This document shows positions 50,987 through 58,674 of a stretch of 64,000 bases of DNA, piece by piece (the stretch's first letter is position 1; every line of letters begins with the position of its first letter). Position numbers and translations under genes: made by a program. The notes under the pieces were generated by a model. That model saw nothing but the letters and a program-made list of their open reading frames with translations, did no database searches and was not told where the DNA came from. Source of the stretch: an uncultured Clostridia bacterium (GTDB lineage: Bacteria > Bacillota > Clostridia > Oscillospirales > Ruminococcaceae). The DNA lies in assembly GCA_947629945.1 (NCBI GenBank), contig CANRFR010000002.1:519-64518 (forward strand). The letters are read 5' to 3'.

Positions 50987-51019
50987 CCTCTCTCGGTTAA
51001 ACCCCGGGAGAGGATTTTG
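50987..51019 (+). terminator. Terminator after the kinase gene
   Basis: cctctctcgg/ccgggagagg stem plus ATTTT. Confidence 0.6.
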
Positions 51020-51133: not shown

Positions 51134-51162
51134 TTGACATTCACATAATTTTGTAGTATTAT
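51134..51162 (+). promoter_or_regulatory. SigA promoter of the MBOAT operon
   Basis: TTGACA-17-TATTAT. Confidence 0.75.
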
Positions 51163-51234: not shown

Positions 51235-52650
51235 TTGATATTTTCCAGCTTGATCTTTACTTACGCGTTTCTTCCGCTGTGTCTGATCTTGTATATGCTC
51301 GTAAAGCCGCTTAAGGGGAAAAACGCGGTGTTGATAGTCCTGTCGCTGTTCTTTTACGCGTGGGGAGAACCTGTGCGCGTCGGACTGCTGATACTTTCGG
51401 CGGTGGCGAACTACTTTGTCGGCATAGGGATAGGCTCTATAAAAAGCGAAAAGGGACAAAAGGGCGTTCTGGCGGCGGGACTTGTGTTCAATATCGGAAT
51501 GATCGCCGTGATAAAATACAGCGGCTTTTTGATGACAAACGTAAACTCGCTGTTTCATTCAAGTCTGCCCGTGCCCAATATAGCGCCGCTTGCCGGGATA
51601 AGCTTCTACACGTTTCAGATAATAAGCTACATAGTGGACTGCTATTGGGGAAAGGTAGAACCTCAGCGTAATTTTTGGAAGCTTCTGCTTTACATTTCGC
51701 TGTTCCCGCAGCTTATCGCGGGTCCAATAGTCCGCTATCAAACCATTGCCGACGAGATCAACGACCGCCGCACCACTCTTCAAGACTACAGCGAAGGCTT
51801 TTCAAGATTTGTGGTAGGCTTGGCGAAAAAGGTGGTACTGGCTGACCAGCTGCACAAAATCGTTGACAGCTTCCTAGGCGGGAGCGTCGGCGGTCTTACG
51901 ATAGCGGGGTCTTGGTACGGCGTTATCGTGTACTCGCTCTACATATACTTCGACTTTTCGGGATACTCGGATATGGCTATCGGCATAGGGCGCATATTCG
52001 GTTTTCATTTCAACGAGAACTTCGACCACCCTTATCTTTGCAAGGACGTTCAGGAGTTCTGGCAGCGCTGGCACATCTCGCTTGGCTCTTTCTTTCGTGA
52101 TTATCTTATGCCGATAACGTTCTTCGGACACAGAAACAAGTATCTGAGTCTCGCTCTTGTGTGGCTGTGCACGGGCGTTTGGCACGGAGCGGCGTGGAAC
52201 TACATTCTCTGGGGCGTTTACTATGGTCTGTTTATACTGTTTGAAGAGCTTCTCGGCAAAAAGCGCATAAAGAAAATACCTATAGCTATCAGACATATTT
52301 ACAGCAAACTGGTAATTATAATCGGCTTTGGGATATTCTACTTTGACGACACAAAGGGCGGTATCAAAGCTCTCGGACTGTTTTTGCGTAACCTTACTCC
52401 CGCGAACCCGAACGGCGGCATAGGCATCGCCGAAAAGATATCGTTCTGCAACAATCTGTTTCTTATCATCGCGGCTGTCGTGTGCACTTTCCCGCTTATC
52501 AAGTGGTTCAAAAAACTGTCGGAAAAGTCGCTCGGAGTGAAAACGGCAGTCTCGGTCTCATCTACCGTAGTCTGCGCGGTCTTGCTGATACTAAGCTCGA
52601 TACTTATGGTGGACGCTACCACGCAAGCGTTCCTGTATTGGCATTTTTAA
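51235..52650 (+). CDS. MBOAT O-acyltransferase (AlgI/DltB/PatA family)
   Basis: GISFYTFQ.ISY, FPQLIAGPIVRY, YFDFSGYSDMAIG, FWQRWHISL, GVWHG catalytic His, C-terminal FLYWHF; TTG start. Confidence 0.93.
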   Translation: MIFSSLIFTYAFLPLCLILYMLVKPLKGKNAVLIVLSLFFYAWGEPVRVGLLILSAVANYFVGIGIGSIKSEKGQKGVLAAGLVFNIGMIAVIKYSGFLMTNVNSLFHSSLPVPNIAPLAGISFYTFQIISYIVDCYWGKVEPQRNFWKLLLYISLFPQLIAGPIVRYQTIADEINDRRTTLQDYSEGFSRFVVGLAKKVVLADQLHKIVDSFLGGSVGGLTIAGSWYGVIVYSLYIYFDFSGYSDMAIGIGRIFGFHFNENFDHPYLCKDVQEFWQRWHISLGSFFRDYLMPITFFGHRNKYLSLALVWLCTGVWHGAAWNYILWGVYYGLFILFEELLGKKRIKKIPIAIRHIYSKLVIIIGFGIFYFDDTKGGIKALGLFLRNLTPANPNGGIGIAEKISFCNNLFLIIAAVVCTFPLIKWFKKLSEKSLGVKTAVSVSSTVVCAVLLILSSILMVDATTQAFLYWHF

Positions 52651-52662
52651 GGAGGTGCGGTT

Positions 52663-53316
52663 TTGAATAAAGACAAAAAGAAAGATATGGAGAAAAAACC
52701 CGCCGACCCCAAAACCGAAAAACGCGAACGCACTCTGCGTATCGTGAATATCGCGGCTCTGATGGCAGTGTTTGTCGGTATAACGCTGTTTATGACGTTC
52801 GGCAAACGTCCGAACGTTTCCTACACCGAGAACCGCGACCTCGAAAAGCCGCCCGAATTTACTTGGGAGGGGTATTTCAGCGGATATGTTACCGACCAAT
52901 TCGCAAAGTACTACAACGACACCGTGCCGCAAAGAGCGACTTGGAAACTGTTCATCTCAAACTTCCGCGCTCATCTGGGCGTTAAATACGGCAGCGGCGT
53001 GACTATCGTCGGCGACGTACCCGTTATTGAAAATCCCGTCAAGCCAAATTCCGACACAAGCGGCGGACAAAGCAAGCCCGCGAACTCCATTCCCGATGTG
53101 GTGATTGCACAGCCCTCCGGTACCTCCTCCGAAACGTCCTCAAGCACGGCTTCTTCAAGTTCAAACCCCAAGGTGCCCGATGTGGTCATTCCAAATCCGA
53201 ACGGCTCTTCGGAAACAGACGAACCGGAGGAACCGGCAGAATCAAATCCCGATGACGCAGAAAGCTCTAATCCCAAGGTGCCCGAGGTGGTCATTCCAAG
53301 CATACCTATCGTATAA
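52663..53316 (+). CDS. N-terminal anchor domain of a DHHW-family protein without the catalytic domain
   Basis: TM plus S.TENR.L...P.F...YFSG...YYNDTVP.R motif; S/P/E linker ending in three P(K)VP[DE]VVI repeats. Confidence 0.65.
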   Translation: MNKDKKKDMEKKPADPKTEKRERTLRIVNIAALMAVFVGITLFMTFGKRPNVSYTENRDLEKPPEFTWEGYFSGYVTDQFAKYYNDTVPQRATWKLFISNFRAHLGVKYGSGVTIVGDVPVIENPVKPNSDTSGGQSKPANSIPDVVIAQPSGTSSETSSSTASSSSNPKVPDVVIPNPNGSSETDEPEEPAESNPDDAESSNPKVPEVVIPSIPIV

Positions 53317-53395
53317 CTCAATAAAAAGTGATTTCACCGCCCGGGGGGAAAACCAAAAATCTCTCAAAAAATTATGTAACAGAGGAAAAAATGCT

Positions 53396-54541
53396 ATGAA
53401 TACCAAATTTAAACAAATCGTTTCGGCTATCGCGTTTTCATCACTTATATTGACCCTTACAGGCTGCGGCGCAGGTCAGCCCGACGCCGCCGAAGGGCGT
53501 TCTTCAAGTCCGCTTGAGGACTTGGTAAAAAGCGGAGCCTCGGAAATTTCAAGCGCCGTCCATAGCGCTTCCGAGGAAGTTTCGCAAAATGTCAGCCGAA
53601 ACGGAGCGGCTCCGTCAAACGAAACGTCTTACATACCGCCCGAAAACAATATGAAGGGCGAGGTCTCGGACGGTATTCTCGTACTGGAAAACGGTCGCGG
53701 CATAATGCTCTACGGCATAGGATACGAGCCGGGACGTAATTACGCGGCGACCGTGAATAAGTACAAGGAGCAGCTCGGAAAGAACGTCAACGTTTACTCA
53801 ATGGTCGTTCCCACACAGGTAACGTTCTATATGCCCGACGAGTACGCGGAACTTTCCGACAAGGAACTCCCCCACATTGACGACATCAACGAGCATTTGA
53901 GCGGTATTATCCCGATAGACGCTTACGCCGCTCTAAAAAGTCACGTAAACGAGGAAATATATTACCGCACCGACCACCATTGGTCGCAGCTTGGCGCGTA
54001 TTACGCGGCTGAAGCGTTCGCGGAAACCGCAAAAGTGCCGTTCGACGACCTTTCGACTTACGACAAGCACGAACAGAGCGGATATGTAGGCACGCTTTAC
54101 GGCTCCTCAAACGAAGACCCGCGTATCGGCAGCAATCCCGAAACGTTTGTGTGGTATGTTCCCAAACGCGAGGTGAGTACCACTTATCTTGACGCAAAGG
54201 CTCAGGACGGATACAGCGGAAGTTATTTCTTTAAACCCGATGATTTCGGTTCCACTGCTGAGTGGAACCTCACCTATATGGGCGGCGACTCACATATAGT
54301 ACATGTGGAAACGGGGCTCAATACGGGCAGAAAGCTGATGATACTCAAGGACAGCTACGCCGACAGTCTCGCGCCGTGCCTTTTCGGGTCGTTTGACGAT
54401 ATTTGGGTGGTGGATATGCGCTATTGCGAAACGAGCGCGGTAAAGCTGGCGCAGGATAACGGCATTACCGACTTGCTGTTTTGCAGCTGCACGTTCAGCG
54501 CGACAGCCAACAATCAATACAAATTAGCCGAGATAATGTGA
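53396..54541 (+). CDS. DHHW-family (AlgJ/AlgX/DltD-like) lipoprotein 1
   Basis: Lipobox LTGC; YRTDHHW; KDSY; VDMRY. Confidence 0.85.
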   Translation: MNTKFKQIVSAIAFSSLILTLTGCGAGQPDAAEGRSSSPLEDLVKSGASEISSAVHSASEEVSQNVSRNGAAPSNETSYIPPENNMKGEVSDGILVLENGRGIMLYGIGYEPGRNYAATVNKYKEQLGKNVNVYSMVVPTQVTFYMPDEYAELSDKELPHIDDINEHLSGIIPIDAYAALKSHVNEEIYYRTDHHWSQLGAYYAAEAFAETAKVPFDDLSTYDKHEQSGYVGTLYGSSNEDPRIGSNPETFVWYVPKREVSTTYLDAKAQDGYSGSYFFKPDDFGSTAEWNLTYMGGDSHIVHVETGLNTGRKLMILKDSYADSLAPCLFGSFDDIWVVDMRYCETSAVKLAQDNGITDLLFCSCTFSATANNQYKLAEIM

Positions 54542-54642
54542 ACAGCGATACCGAAATTATGCAAATGTTCACATAGGCGTGACCGTATTATCACGGACAT
54601 ATTATATCATAATATAAAGGAACATATAAGGGGGATACTTTA

Positions 54643-55848
54643 ATGAAGAAAGCAAAAACAACGGCTGCCGCTGCGGCTGTTATTACGGCGGCGCTGCTCG
54701 CACTTACGGGGTGTGAAAGCATGGACGCGTCGAGCGTGCCGACAATCAGCGTAGATATGGTAAACAACGGCGATTCTTCCGCAAGCTCTCAAACAAGCGC
54801 GGAAAGCGGGGCAACTTCGCAGAGCGGTTCAAATTCGGAAAGCGGCTCCAATTCGGAGAGCGGCTCTGCCTCCGAAAACGAGCCTGTATCCTCGCCCGAA
54901 TCGAGCGTAACGCAAACAAGCCAACCCGCGCCCGAACCCGACACCTCGTCCACGGGCGTGAAAGGCGAACTTTCGGGCACCATAATCGTGGACGCCACGG
55001 GACGCGGTATGCCGATATTCGGCGGCGGAACGGGCGAGACCTACGCCGCCGCCGTAAACGAGGTTAAAGACAAGGTAGGCGCGGAGGTGAACGTATTTTC
55101 GATGATTGTTCCCACGCAAGGCTCTTTCTATATGCCCGAGGGATTGAGTATGGCAAGCGAGTGGGATTGTATCGCGAACGTGAACGACCAGCTTTGGGGC
55201 ATTATTCCCGTTGACGCTTACACCGCGCTTTCAAAGCACGTCGACGAGGAGATATACGCGCGTACGGACCACCACTGGATGCAGCTCGGCGCTTACTATG
55301 CGGCGGAAGAATTTGTAAAGACCGCGAAGATAAGCGAACCGTTCACGCCGCTTTCGGAGTACGAAAGGCGTGATATCGAGGGATATCTGGGCACGCTTTA
55401 CGGCTACAGCAACGAAAATGCCACAATGGCAGCAAACCCCGAAACGTTCACCTATTATATAGCGCCGAATGATTTCGCGACCTATTATATGAACCCCGAG
55501 GACTATGACTTCACCCGAAACACGATGTTCCTCGATATGCCCACAAGCTCTTCTTACAGCACGTTTATGGGCGGCGATGAGAAAGTCGTTCACATAGAGA
55601 CTGACGTTAAGAACGGAAGAAAACTGCTTGTCGTAAAGGACAGTTACCCCAACGCGCTGATACCTTGCCTTACAGGCTCTTTTGAAGAGATATGGTCGGT
55701 GGATATGCGCTATCTTGAGGAAATGAAGAATTTCCCGACGAGCATTTCTCAGATAGTCCGTGATAAGGGCGTTACAGACGTGCTGTTCTGTATGGATACG
55801 TTCAGCGCCGTAGGCGAAAACGCTAACCACCTCTCGGGAATTGTTTAA
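54643..55848 (+). CDS. DHHW-family lipoprotein 2
   Basis: Lipobox LTGC; ARTDHHW; KDSY; VDMRY; paralog of the preceding gene. Confidence 0.85.
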   Translation: MKKAKTTAAAAAVITAALLALTGCESMDASSVPTISVDMVNNGDSSASSQTSAESGATSQSGSNSESGSNSESGSASENEPVSSPESSVTQTSQPAPEPDTSSTGVKGELSGTIIVDATGRGMPIFGGGTGETYAAAVNEVKDKVGAEVNVFSMIVPTQGSFYMPEGLSMASEWDCIANVNDQLWGIIPVDAYTALSKHVDEEIYARTDHHWMQLGAYYAAEEFVKTAKISEPFTPLSEYERRDIEGYLGTLYGYSNENATMAANPETFTYYIAPNDFATYYMNPEDYDFTRNTMFLDMPTSSSYSTFMGGDEKVVHIETDVKNGRKLLVVKDSYPNALIPCLTGSFEEIWSVDMRYLEEMKNFPTSISQIVRDKGVTDVLFCMDTFSAVGENANHLSGIV

Positions 55849-55886
55849 GAACCTGTACCAACAGCTTCTAAGAAAGGACTTTGCCC

Positions 55887-57677
55887 ATGTTACCCGAACT
55901 TTGCCGCCCGTTTGACGGCGATGAAATTATGACTAAAAAGAAGAAGCTTCTGCGGCTTCTCAAAGAAAATGAAACGGGAACGCCGCTTAGAATAGCGGTG
56001 CTCGGCGGTTCTACGACCTCGGATATCGTAAAAGTGCTTGAACTGTTTTTGCGAAACCGAGGTATCGTGCCGACATTTTACGAGAGCGAATACGCCCAAT
56101 ATCAAAACGACGCGCTGTTCTCAAATGCGGAGCTTGACAGCTTCAAGCCCGAAATAGTGTTTATCCACACGACTTCGCGCAATATCGAGGAAAAGCCCAC
56201 GATTGGCGAGAACGAAGCTTCGGTCTGCGAAAAGCTGGAGCGTGAATACGCGCGATATGAGAGAATGTGGGCTTCCCTTTCGGAAAGATTTGGTTGTATT
56301 ATCATTCAGAACAACTTTGAACTGCCGAGTGAACGGCTTTTGGGAAACCGAGAGGTCGGGTGCGCTTTCGGACGTATCGACTTCATCACGCGCCTGAACG
56401 TCAAGCTGTATGACTACGCACGAACGCACGGCAATTTCTATATTCACGACATCAACTACCTTTCGGCGGCTTATGGTCTGGAAAACTGGCACGAGCTTCG
56501 GCACTGGCATTTGTATAAGTACGCAATGAGCGTTTCGGCAATACCCGAGTTCGCTTACAGCTTATCAAACATAATCTGCTCCGTAATGGGCAAAAACAAA
56601 AAGGTATTGGCGCTCGACCTTGACAACACGCTGTGGGGCGGCGTAATCGGCGACGACGGTCAGGCGGGTATCGAGATCGGTCACGAAACGCACGAGGGAC
56701 AAAGTTACCTGGCTTTGCAGAAATTCGTCAAAGCGCACAAAGAACTCGGCATTTTGCTGACTGTATGCTCGAAAAACGACCCCGAAAACGCGCTTGAGGG
56801 CTTGAACCACCCCGACGGCGTTCTGAAGCCCGAGGACTTCGCGCTTATCAAAGCGAACTGGAACGAGAAGTCGCTGAACCTTGAGGAAACGGCTTCCGAA
56901 CTTAATCTGCTTCCCGAAAGTTTTGTGTTCGTTGACGATAATCCCGCAGAATGTGAAATTGTGAAAGCACAGCTTCCCGAAGTTACGGTGATAAACTTTG
57001 AAAACCCCGAGGAATGTATACGTGCAATCGACAAGTGCGGCTTGTTTGAGGTGACAAACCTATCCGCCGACGACGCTAAGCGCGGCGAGATGTATGCGGC
57101 AAACGCTCAGAGAGCCGCCGCCGAGAAAAAGTTCGCAAGCTACGACGAATTTTTGTCTAGCCTTGAAATGAGCGCGATCATAGGAGAATTCGACCCGGTG
57201 CACATTCCGCGTATAACTCAGCTCACCAACAAAAGCAATCAATTTAACTGCACGACCAAGCGCTACACGCAAGCCGAAATGGAAAGCGTCGCGCAAAGCC
57301 CGAATTATATCAGGCTTTGCGGAAGACTGACGGACAAATTCGGCGACAACGGAATTGTTTCCATAGTTATCGGCGAGAAAAAGGGTTCGGAGCTTCATAT
57401 AGATTTATGGCTGATGAGCTGCCGAGTATTGAAGCGCGGAATGGAATACGCGATGATAAACCGTCTTGTAGAGGAAGCAAAAAAAGCGGACGTCAAGACG
57501 ATTTACGGATATTATTACCCGACAAAAAAGAACGCTATGGTGAAAGAGCTTTTCGGCGGCTTTGGGTTTTCAAAGGTCTCCGAGGACGAAAACCAAAATA
57601 CGGTTTGGACGCTGGACGTAAACTCCTATACACCCAAAACCGTACATATCGATATAAAGGAGAATAACAATGGATAA
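55887..57677 (+). CDS. FkbH-like HAD-IIIC protein (glyceryl-ACP forming) with N-terminal SGNH-like and C-terminal GNAT-like domains
   Basis: LDLDNTLWGGVIGDDG, CSKND, VDDNPAE, QLTNKSNQFN, DKFGDNG, MSCRVL; ATG at 55887 after AAGGA. Confidence 0.9.
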   Translation: MLPELCRPFDGDEIMTKKKKLLRLLKENETGTPLRIAVLGGSTTSDIVKVLELFLRNRGIVPTFYESEYAQYQNDALFSNAELDSFKPEIVFIHTTSRNIEEKPTIGENEASVCEKLEREYARYERMWASLSERFGCIIIQNNFELPSERLLGNREVGCAFGRIDFITRLNVKLYDYARTHGNFYIHDINYLSAAYGLENWHELRHWHLYKYAMSVSAIPEFAYSLSNIICSVMGKNKKVLALDLDNTLWGGVIGDDGQAGIEIGHETHEGQSYLALQKFVKAHKELGILLTVCSKNDPENALEGLNHPDGVLKPEDFALIKANWNEKSLNLEETASELNLLPESFVFVDDNPAECEIVKAQLPEVTVINFENPEECIRAIDKCGLFEVTNLSADDAKRGEMYAANAQRAAAEKKFASYDEFLSSLEMSAIIGEFDPVHIPRITQLTNKSNQFNCTTKRYTQAEMESVAQSPNYIRLCGRLTDKFGDNGIVSIVIGEKKGSELHIDLWLMSCRVLKRGMEYAMINRLVEEAKKADVKTIYGYYYPTKKNAMVKELFGGFGFSKVSEDENQNTVWTLDVNSYTPKTVHIDIKENNNG

Positions 57678-57918
57678 GCAGAAAATAACGGAGCGCCTCA
57701 CAGAGGTATTCAGAAACGTTTTCGACGACGAGGACTTGATAATAAACGAAAACACCACAGCCGACGACATCGAGGAGTGGGACAGTCTGGAGCACATCAG
57801 CCTTATCTCGGCGGTGGAGAAAGCGTTTAAAATGCGCTTTACAATGAAAGAGGTAAGCGGTATGAAAAACGTCGGCGAGATGATAGATATTCTTTGCGAA
57901 CGCGCAAAAAAAGTTTGA
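57670..57918 (+). CDS. Acyl carrier protein
   Basis: 82 aa acidic protein; WDSL phosphopantetheinylation site; overlaps the FkbH stop. Confidence 0.92.
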   Translation: MDKQKITERLTEVFRNVFDDEDLIINENTTADDIEEWDSLEHISLISAVEKAFKMRFTMKEVSGMKNVGEMIDILCERAKKV

Positions 57919-57966: not shown

Positions 57967-58674
57967 ATGTACTTTGATTGGACTTACTTGGTATTCGTCG
58001 TTCCCGCGATGATTTTCGCTATGATTGCGAGCGCGAGCGTGGATTCCACGTTCAAGAAATACTCGCAGCAACTCTCGTCGAGAGGTATAACGGGCGCTCA
58101 GGCGGCGAGGTTCGTGCTGGATAAGAACGGCTTGCAGAATATCCCGATAGAGACGATCAGCGGCAAGCTCACCGACCACTACGACCCGCGTTCCAACGTC
58201 ATTCGGCTTTCCTCCGACGTTTATTCCGGAACCTCGACAGCCGCCATCGGAGTGGCTTGCCACGAGGTGGGACACGCTATACAGCACGCTACGGGCTACA
58301 CGCCCATTAAAATTCGCACGGCGATAGTGCCGATAACGAATATCGGCTCCAAAATGGCAGTGCCGCTTATCCTGATAGGGATAATCTTGAGTTCGCTCGG
58401 AGAATTTTTTGTATGGCTCGCCTATGCGGGCGTTATCCTTTATTCTTTGACAGTCGTGTTCCAGCTTGTGACGCTCCCGACGGAATTTAACGCTTCGCAC
58501 CGCGCTTTAGTGACGATACGTGATAACGGTATATTAACTAACGACGAACTTGCGGGCGCACGTAAAGTCCTCACAGCCGCGGCTATGACGTATGTCGCGG
58601 CGCTTGCGGTCGCGTTCGGTCAACTGTTGAGACTGCTGATTATCGTAAGCGGAGGACGTTCTCGGAGAAATTGA
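57967..58674 (+). CDS. YugP-like membrane zinc metallopeptidase
   Basis: LTDHYDP, ACHEVGHAIQH, TLPTEFNAS.RA, AAAMTYVA. Confidence 0.9.
   Translation: MYFDWTYLVFVVPAMIFAMIASASVDSTFKKYSQQLSSRGITGAQAARFVLDKNGLQNIPIETISGKLTDHYDPRSNVIRLSSDVYSGTSTAAIGVACHEVGHAIQHATGYTPIKIRTAIVPITNIGSKMAVPLILIGIILSSLGEFFVWLAYAGVILYSLTVVFQLVTLPTEFNASHRALVTIRDNGILTNDELAGARKVLTAAAMTYVAALAVAFGQLLRLLIIVSGGRSRRN

Follow-up and report, generated by a model that had tools for sequence, protein, structure and literature searches.

The window analysed here is a 64,000-nucleotide (nt) stretch of DNA from an uncultured Clostridia bacterium (assembly GCA_947629945.1, contig CANRFR010000002.1, positions 519-64,518, forward strand). 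It contains an operon of six genes, encoding a membrane-bound O-acyltransferase (MBOAT), a membrane anchor and two lipoproteins related to the DHHW family, an FkbH-type loading enzyme and an acyl carrier protein (ACP). The operon is a candidate for a carrier-protein-fed system of cell-envelope acylation. The six genes lie as the original prediction, made by inspection of the DNA, had described them, and the domain assignments are confirmed by hidden Markov model searches.

The six genes and their products

The genes, motifs and flanking signals are listed below in 5′ to 3′ order, with lengths in amino acids (aa).

50987..51013, + strand: intrinsic-terminator-like hairpin; 10-bp stem with 7 GC pairs, then a T-run
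51134..51162, + strand: sigma-70-like promoter, TTGACA, 17 nt spacer, TATTAT; 11/12 match, the top site of the region
51235..52650, + strand: MBOAT of the PatA type, 471 aa; start TTG 51235, ribosome-binding site GGGGTG; PF03062 3e-25
51643-51651 and 52057-52074, + strand: MBOAT clade signature, YWG and FWQRWH respectively
52174-52188, + strand: MBOAT GVWHG; predicted catalytic His at 52183-52185
52630-52647, + strand: MBOAT C-terminal FLYWHF (fits FxYxxF); predicted acyl-shuttle Tyr at 52636-52638
52663..53316, + strand: detached DHHW N-terminal module, a 217-aa membrane protein; DHHW profile positions 1-111, E 0.009
53393..54541, + strand: DHHW/AlgX-like SGNH acyltransferase 1 (DHHW1), lipoprotein, lipobox LTGC; PF14286 ~2e-34
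53969-53983, 54353-54355 and 54413-54424, + strand: DHHW1 TDHHW, Ser of KDSY, and DMRY
54643..55848, + strand: DHHW/AlgX-like SGNH acyltransferase 2 (DHHW2), lipoprotein, lipobox LTGC; PF14286 ~2e-34
55264-55278, 55642-55644 and 55702-55713, + strand: DHHW2 TDHHW, Ser of KDSY, and DMRY
55887..57677, + strand: FkbH-type loader, 596 aa; FkbH_N 1e-13; TIGR01686 287.9 bits against a cut-off of 146.65
56616-56630, + strand: FkbH DLDNT, followed by CSKN, DDNP and MSCRV, the conserved Cys of the last at 57420-57422
57670..57918, + strand: dedicated ACP, 82 aa; predicted phosphopantetheine Ser39 in WDSL, 57784-57786

All six genes are on the + strand, separated by gaps of 12, 76, 101 and ~38 nt, after which the FkbH and ACP genes overlap, as had been reported, by 8 nt. 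The FkbH and ACP genes are translationally coupled, and form one operon with the MBOAT and DHHW genes. The 5′ border of the unit is the terminator hairpin, which closes an upstream histidine-kinase gene. A promoter ahead of the MBOAT gene had been proposed at 51134, and the site found there lies 3′ of the terminator. Promoter-like sites in the region are as numerous as expected by chance (9 observed, 9.4 expected), so the support for this one comes only from its position and score.

The MBOAT carries its catalytic histidine in GVWHG and terminates in FLYWHF, both placed correctly by the original prediction. In an alignment of 47 MBOATs the histidine of GVWHG and positions F471, Y473 and F476 are invariant in all 47. 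The DltB model TIGR04091 has a cut-off of 375 bits, and with 163 bits the protein falls below equivalog level; against DltB in the PDB it reaches only 92-95 bits.

The 217-aa protein comprises a transmembrane helix, an ENRDL juxtamembrane region and a low-complexity tail of Ser, Pro and Glu, without a catalytic domain. In a related cassette the DHHW protein is full-length, with 488 aa, and its residues 27-160 align with residues 16-153 of the 217-aa protein (49% identity, 2e-38), identifying the latter as the transmembrane and juxtamembrane module of a DHHW protein cut off from its catalytic domain. Docking on the MBOAT is the probable role of this module. The same division into MBOAT, anchor (~116-129 aa) and lipoprotein DHHW is seen at loci L113/L114, L037 and L032. 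A frameshift artefact was considered as the origin of the split. It was rejected on two grounds: the lipoprotein carries a signal peptide and a lipobox of its own, and the split recurs in other assemblies.

DHHW1 and DHHW2 are paralogues with 47% identity. The TDHHW and KDSY motifs noted earlier are present in both, and are accompanied by DMRY, the counterpart of the oxyanion motif DxRY in BcPatB1 (PMC9487903). BcPatB1, an O-acetyltransferase acting on secondary cell wall polysaccharide, is the one characterised member of the DHHW family (PMC9487903). DHHW1 matches it with 2e-10 (PDB 5V8E), and matches the uncharacterised Eubacterium siraeum protein EUBSIR_00411 (PDB 4NZK) with 7e-71. The latter match scores as cassette-type lipoprotein DHHWs do, so that the outer transferase of the cassette probably has a solved structure already. 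DHHW1 departs from residues that are otherwise conserved in DHHW proteins both linked and unlinked to FkbH: it has N292 in place of Tyr, Y295 in place of Phe, V305 in place of Ile, A323 in place of Gly and D324 in place of Asn. Its catalytic residues (Ser, His, Asp and Arg) are intact. The two lipoproteins may have diverged in acceptor or in role.

FkbH is built in three parts, comprising FkbH_N, a HAD-IIIC phosphatase domain and a C-terminal domain with a GNAT fold, and its TIGR01686 match spans profile positions 3-319 of 323. The start is more likely ATG 55887 than the first TTG of the open reading frame; the 596-aa protein read from this ATG is identical to database protein P0001. The motifs DxDxT, SKN, DD and MSCRV are common to all FkbH classes described below, including those of polyketide synthase (PKS) type that are encoded beside FkbI/FkbK-like genes in the same taxonomic order. 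Every phosphatase motif is kept, which argues that the substrate still bears a removable phosphate. The only solved relative is the uncharacterised BF1531 fragment 3SLR (1.7e-47), to which the first two domains of an AlphaFold model correspond. The mean pLDDT of the model is 69.5, and its N- and C-terminal domains are confident. By structure comparison of the model, the C-terminal domain matches GNAT acetyltransferases (E ~1e-7, target TM 0.6-0.7); such a fold fits a domain that would bind a pantetheine arm and transfer an acyl group.

The ACP matches the PDB carrier protein 2LML with 1.6e-17, and several ACP models of NCBIfam match it weakly. OzmB-type HAD proteins load glycerate from 1,3-bisphosphoglycerate onto an ACP. 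The formation of glyceryl-ACP from this substrate by an FkbH-like enzyme and a standalone ACP has been described (PMC7489565).

Linkage of FkbH and ACP to membrane acyltransferases

Conservation of the cassette was analysed in 301 genomes of the order to which the window belongs, using TIGR01686. FkbH scored over the cut-off in 42 of these, and DHHW proteins are present in 216. Around each of the 46 FkbH loci ~10 kb on either side was taken where the contig allowed, and the open reading frames were scored with the window proteins; selected neighbours were also searched with Pfam. At 36 of the 46 loci FkbH has an MBOAT and/or DHHW gene within 10 kb, in three architectures that differ in the outer-face partner (DHHW, GDSL-like or CE4-domain). 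The loci divide as below, the second FkbH copy of this genome completing the total of 46.

Class A, 22 loci, window included: long FkbH, ACP, one or two DHHW, usually MBOAT
Class B, 7 loci: long FkbH, ACP, MBOAT; in L040 then a GDSL-like membrane protein
Class C, 7 loci: MBOAT, 608-aa membrane protein with CE4 domain, small phosphopantetheine-binding protein, short FkbH
Class D, 9 loci: no MBOAT; some with radical-SAM and ABC genes

The linkage of FkbH and ACP to the MBOAT and DHHW genes is thus conserved, and a loss of synteny in relatives, which the original prediction had named as a ground for refutation, is not observed: the pair adjoins them at most loci of the order-wide sample, and the same gene order occurs in two independent public assemblies (by protein look-up and precomputed Pfam labels). 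No other gene family is kept around the 46 loci beyond the core genes. Class D includes three canonical sets with FkbI- and FkbK-like dehydrogenases (c29, c28), one of which adjoins a probable megasynthase of 2528 aa.

In a tree of FkbH proteins, that of the window falls in a long clade together with class B and sugar-cluster-linked forms, apart from a clade of short PKS-type proteins. The FkbH proteins of class C branch among the short PKS-type ones.

A maximum-likelihood tree was calculated for 47 MBOATs, including 20 pairs taken from around DHHW genes with no FkbH nearby. Thirteen class A MBOATs form one clade (support 100/99), which has evolved together with the FkbH-ACP linkage. Its sister (98/97) consists of 16 MBOAT-DHHW pairs that lack a neighbouring FkbH or ACP; this genome contributes one of the 16. 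Class C MBOATs also form a clade (100/100), while those of class B lie outside both the class A and the unlinked clades, in two groups. The class A clade holds in addition three apparently unlinked MBOAT-DHHW pairs from a single genus of the same family (FkbH loci L059, L060, L062 and L044; MBOAT loci L094, L095 and L097). In this genus a 442-aa DUF308 membrane protein, two lipoprotein DHHWs, FkbH and ACP are encoded at one site, and the clade A MBOAT with a full-length DHHW protein elsewhere on the chromosome. The functional linkage therefore seems to outlast a separation of the genes on the chromosome.

The linked clade replaces two arginines that are conserved in the unlinked clade, such that YRG becomes YWG and FWRRWH becomes FWQRWH. 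Conserved arginines line the putative acyl-CoA pocket in PatA (PMC12148441), and in an alignment of PDB sequences DltB, which depends on a carrier protein, reads FWNRWH at the second of the two sites. The loss therefore hints at a change of donor, though weakly.

No ketoacyl-synthase (KS) or AMP-binding match is present on the window's contig, and tblastn searches with FkbI/FkbK-like proteins of related loci found no homologue in the whole genome. The earlier statement that no PKS, nonribosomal peptide synthetase (NRPS), adenylation or FkbG/I/K-type tailoring gene lies in the window is borne out. No PKS was found adjoining either FkbH copy of the genome, and DltD gave no match over its cut-off in the genome. 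The absence of DltD, of FkbI/K-type genes and of a PKS near either FkbH indicates that the cassette belongs neither to a Dlt nor to a polyketide pathway. The genome's single AMP-binding protein is encoded on contig C52, outside the window, which holds no adenylating DltA ligase. In its gene content the genome is consistent with an envelope role for the cassette. There are three phosphopantetheinyl transferases (PPTases). One TagF-like and three LtaS-like genes make teichoic-type polymers possible acceptors.

A second FkbH-ACP pair is found on contig C138 (L035:3266-6617, minus strand), continuing on C198:2-283. It is followed, in place of an MBOAT, by a 369-aa membrane acyltransferase of the AT3 family (Acyl_transf_3 4e-26). 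This second FkbH is 57% identical to that of the window, and has an in-frame TAA (AAA-to-TAA) at a codon for Lys in its relatives (QLTN-K-SNQFN); either the copy became a pseudogene recently or the assembly is in error. At C32:10213-12927 (minus strand) and C32:15038-16402 the genome also encodes a paralogous MBOAT of 493 aa, which ends FLYFNF, keeps YRR/FWRRWH and is paired with a full-length DHHW-like protein. This pair has neither ACP nor FkbH, is the one that falls in the unlinked sister clade, and is probably an ordinary acetyl-CoA system. A further AT3 gene, 52% identical to that on C138, lies 2 kb from it. A 232-aa MBOAT fragment (C21:22601-23299; PF03062 2.5e-8, profile positions 80-259) is apparently a truncated remnant.

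The genome's only non-FabF KS protein has 739 aa and two ketoacyl-synthase matches, and adjoins genes for a short-chain dehydrogenase/reductase and an Sfp-type PPTase; no ACP was seen in the vicinity. This small cluster (C28:15639-19990) is unrelated to either FkbH locus. The KS protein was considered as a consumer of glyceryl-ACP and rejected as unsupported, being on another contig and without FkbI/K genes.

The MBOATs of class C (L048, L050, L058, L064, L069, L070 and L071) read FWRRWN, and so have no second His in the RWH motif. The CE4 polysaccharide-deacetylase domain of their partner is C-terminal, and the cassette may perform a deacetylate-then-reacylate chemistry.

The search was extended to 400 further genomes of the phylum, 14 of which contain FkbH, at 15 loci. 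Three of these loci are MBOAT-linked, five look PKS-type, two have an ACP and a weak CE4-like match (16-20 bits) and two are unassigned. The remaining three lie in apparent amino-sugar/nonulosonic-acid clusters, as judged by N-terminal sequences only. At these three (L098, L103 and L105) a long FkbH and an ACP stand among NeuB-like, cytidylyltransferase-like and aminotransferase-like genes, assigned in the same way, and are candidates for the N-glyceroyl decoration of pseudaminic/legionaminic (Pse/Leg) sugars.

Downstream of the operon lies one further gene on the same strand.

57967..58674, + strand: Zn_peptidase_2 membrane metallopeptidase, 48 nt 3′ of the ACP gene

No strong terminator lies between the ACP and Zn_peptidase_2 genes, and the latter may be co-transcribed with the operon. 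It is not kept with the cassette in relatives, and so is probably outside the system.

Proposed pathway and its alternatives

We favour, with moderate confidence, the reading that the six-gene operon acylates an extracytoplasmic polymer of the cell envelope through an MBOAT-SGNH system fed by a carrier protein. That the ACP is the acyl donor for the MBOAT is itself quite likely; that it is the donor and the group it carries is glyceryl is, taken jointly, an evenly balanced proposition. From family chemistry and from analogy with the Dlt and PatA systems we infer the acyl group, its transfer to form an ester and the polymer that accepts it.

Following the chemistry of its family, FkbH would take 1,3-bisphosphoglycerate from glycolysis and bind the acyl group, as an acyl-S-enzyme, through the Cys in its GNAT-fold domain. 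Its HAD domain would strip the 3-phosphate, and the D-glyceryl group would pass to the phosphopantetheine of the adjoining ACP. By analogy with DltC/DltB and PatA, glyceryl-S-ACP would then dock on the cytoplasmic face of the MBOAT, where the catalytic His would direct transfer through a membrane tunnel to the Tyr of FLYWHF at the outer face. The DHHW lipoproteins, acting like PatB, BcPatB1 and DltD, would move the group from this Tyr to their catalytic Ser and on to a hydroxyl of a wall glycopolymer. The detached DHHW membrane module would keep both lipoproteins near the MBOAT. A Dlt-like working model with an FkbH loader is supported by the data. In addition, N-glyceroyl groups are known on bacterial sugars such as Pse5Am7Gra, with genes unassigned (PMC5378307), which makes a glyceroyl substituent chemically plausible.

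Several observations weigh against this interpretation. The HAD domain of FkbH is poorly modelled (pLDDT 37-68), and the ACP scores 19.3 bits on PF00550, just below the gathering score of 20.8. No glycan-synthesis gene that would point to the acceptor travels with the cassette, and we know of no O-glyceroyl ester on a wall polymer of Firmicutes. When the DHHW catalytic domains of FkbH-linked and unlinked proteins are compared, they differ in a single column, Ala against Tyr at position 206. As this column is not interpretable, group-specific catalytic residues were rejected as a mark of linkage. Both arginines are kept in the MBOATs of class B, of class C and of the class A outlier L033, and the replacement of Arg by Trp or Gln was consequently rejected as a general mark of ACP use. 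The two losses in the linked clade represent a single evolutionary event, and as such cannot prove a switch of donor.

The nature of the acyl group bears on one alternative, in which the system is carrier-protein-fed as proposed but the group is not glycerate. The long-form FkbH might load some other small acyl phosphate, or glyceryl-ACP might be modified, for example to lactyl, by an enzyme encoded elsewhere. The window FkbH does belong to the long clade, apart from the short PKS-type proteins, and we know of no long FkbH of the cassette type that has been assayed. However, the HAD motifs and the Cys are all conserved, as fits a substrate that needs dephosphorylation such as 1,3-bisphosphoglycerate, and the operon has no modifying enzyme. 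Moreover, the CE4-type cassettes use a short FkbH that branches among those of PKS type. A group other than glycerate is unlikely on this evidence.

The recurrence of the linkage bears on a second alternative, that the MBOAT and the DHHW proteins form an ordinary set for O-acetylation from acetyl-CoA, as PatA1/PatB1 do, with FkbH and ACP an unrelated co-transcribed module making another product. MBOAT-DHHW pairs without FkbH are far commoner than linked ones, as the genome counts given above for DHHW and FkbH indicate; non-Dlt MBOAT/SGNH pathways are published as users of acyl-CoA (PMC12148441); and the DHHW catalytic residues are alike in linked and unlinked groups. Yet FkbH and ACP are found linked to three unrelated kinds of outer-face partner, and in this genome to AT3 as well, and the linked MBOATs form a clade of their own that includes members encoded away from FkbH and ACP. 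Acetylation can be served by the second, unlinked MBOAT-DHHW pair of the genome, and no other consumer of glyceryl-ACP was found (no FkbI/K, tetronate FabH-type or PKS neighbour). We regard an ordinary acetylation set as distinctly unlikely.

Acylation by glyceryl-ACP of a membrane glycolipid, a lipoteichoic-acid anchor or a secreted protein rather than a polymer would accord with the lack of linked glycan genes and with the LtaS-like and TagF-like genes of the genome, but is very improbable, given that characterised DHHW/AlgX relatives act on polysaccharides (PMC9487903) and that two outer-face lipoprotein transferases fit modification of a polymer.

A fuller reading of the carrier-protein-fed system joins these elements, and we hold it tentatively, as a little short of an even chance. 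It would be a second carrier-protein-fed MBOAT-SGNH pathway after Dlt, one that arose independently from a PatA/PatB1 pair of the acetyl-CoA type. The MBOAT would have switched its donor to an FkbH-loaded ACP with loss of two arginines of the donor tunnel, one at a site where DltB also lacks it, and would place D-glyceroyl esters made from 1,3-bisphosphoglycerate on a Gram-positive wall polymer. FkbH and ACP would then be a portable 'glyceroyl donor module' serving MBOAT, AT3 and sugar-N-acylation systems.

Envelope acylation, as O-acetylation or D-alanylation, governs resistance to lysozyme and antimicrobial peptides, autolysis, phage adsorption and immune recognition. If the carrier-protein-fed pathway is real, it would bring a new donor logic to envelope acylation in abundant gut Clostridia, contrary to the model in which Dlt alone uses a carrier protein (PMC12148441). 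It would probably also introduce a new substituent of the wall: a glyceroyl ester that is hydrophilic, carries a diol and is coupled directly to the flux through glycolysis. Sister MBOAT clades with and without a carrier protein, occurring even within one genome, would constitute a natural experiment on donor change. The FkbH-ACP module may in addition account for the glyceroyl groups of unassigned origin on bacterial sugars, Pse5Am7Gra among them (PMC5378307).

Comparison with known systems

In its organization the operon resembles Dlt. Both have a dedicated small carrier protein that is loaded in the cytoplasm, an MBOAT to carry the acyl group over the membrane, a shuttle tyrosine in an FxYxxF motif and an SGNH-type outer transferase, and in both the MBOAT lacks the Arg before RWH (FWNRWH in DltB, FWQRWH in the window). 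The FXYXXF shuttle is established for DltX and for PatA (PMC12148441). The systems differ in the loader, which is the adenylating DltA in Dlt and an FkbH HAD/GNAT enzyme here; in the tyrosine motif, which is on the DltX microprotein in Dlt and fused to the MBOAT here; in the outer transferase, DltD in the one and of the DHHW family in the other; and in the acyl group, D-alanyl in Dlt and predicted to be glyceryl here. None of the Dlt components searched for (DltA, DltB at equivalog level, DltD and DltX) was recovered. The original prediction of a part-for-part Dlt analogue therefore stands for function, with FkbH replacing DltA, but not for family, since the proteins are of the PatA/PatB1 type, there is no DltD and the MBOAT falls short of the DltB threshold.

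By descent the nearest relatives of the membrane half are PatA/PatB and PatA1/PatB1, along with AlgI/AlgJ/AlgX and WssH/WssI, all of them O-acetyltransferases of the MBOAT-SGNH kind. The window shares with the PatA/PatB1 type the size of the MBOAT (~470 aa), the FxYxxF motif fused to its C-terminus, and a DHHW partner that has the Ser, DHHW and DxRY motifs. PatA/PatB systems use acetyl-CoA as donor, with no carrier protein or loader, whereas the window operon has an ACP and FkbH. Its MBOAT also belongs to a separate clade without the two conserved arginines, and its DHHW protein is split into an anchor and two lipoproteins. MBOAT/SGNH pathways other than Dlt are said to have no carrier protein and to use acyl-CoA (PMC12148441).

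The loading half corresponds to FkbH/FkbJ-type systems, such as those for methoxymalonyl-ACP in FK520, the 'glycerate utilisation' operons of tetronates, and OzmB. It has in common with them an FkbH that exceeds the TIGR01686 cut-off, all of the HAD motifs, the Cys of MSCRV and an adjoining standalone ACP. It differs in having no FkbI/FkbK/FkbG, FabH-like tetronate enzyme, PKS or NRPS; the predicted consumer is instead a membrane acyltransferase.

In the open-access literature no paper was found that links FkbH to an MBOAT or to cell-wall or envelope acylation. What is new here is the set of order-wide architecture classes, the MBOAT clade with its split-locus genus and within-genome paralogue, the signature of lost arginines and the detached DHHW anchor. 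As a working model, the evidence supports a system of the known MBOAT-SGNH acylation kind that is fed by a carrier protein through an FkbH loader.

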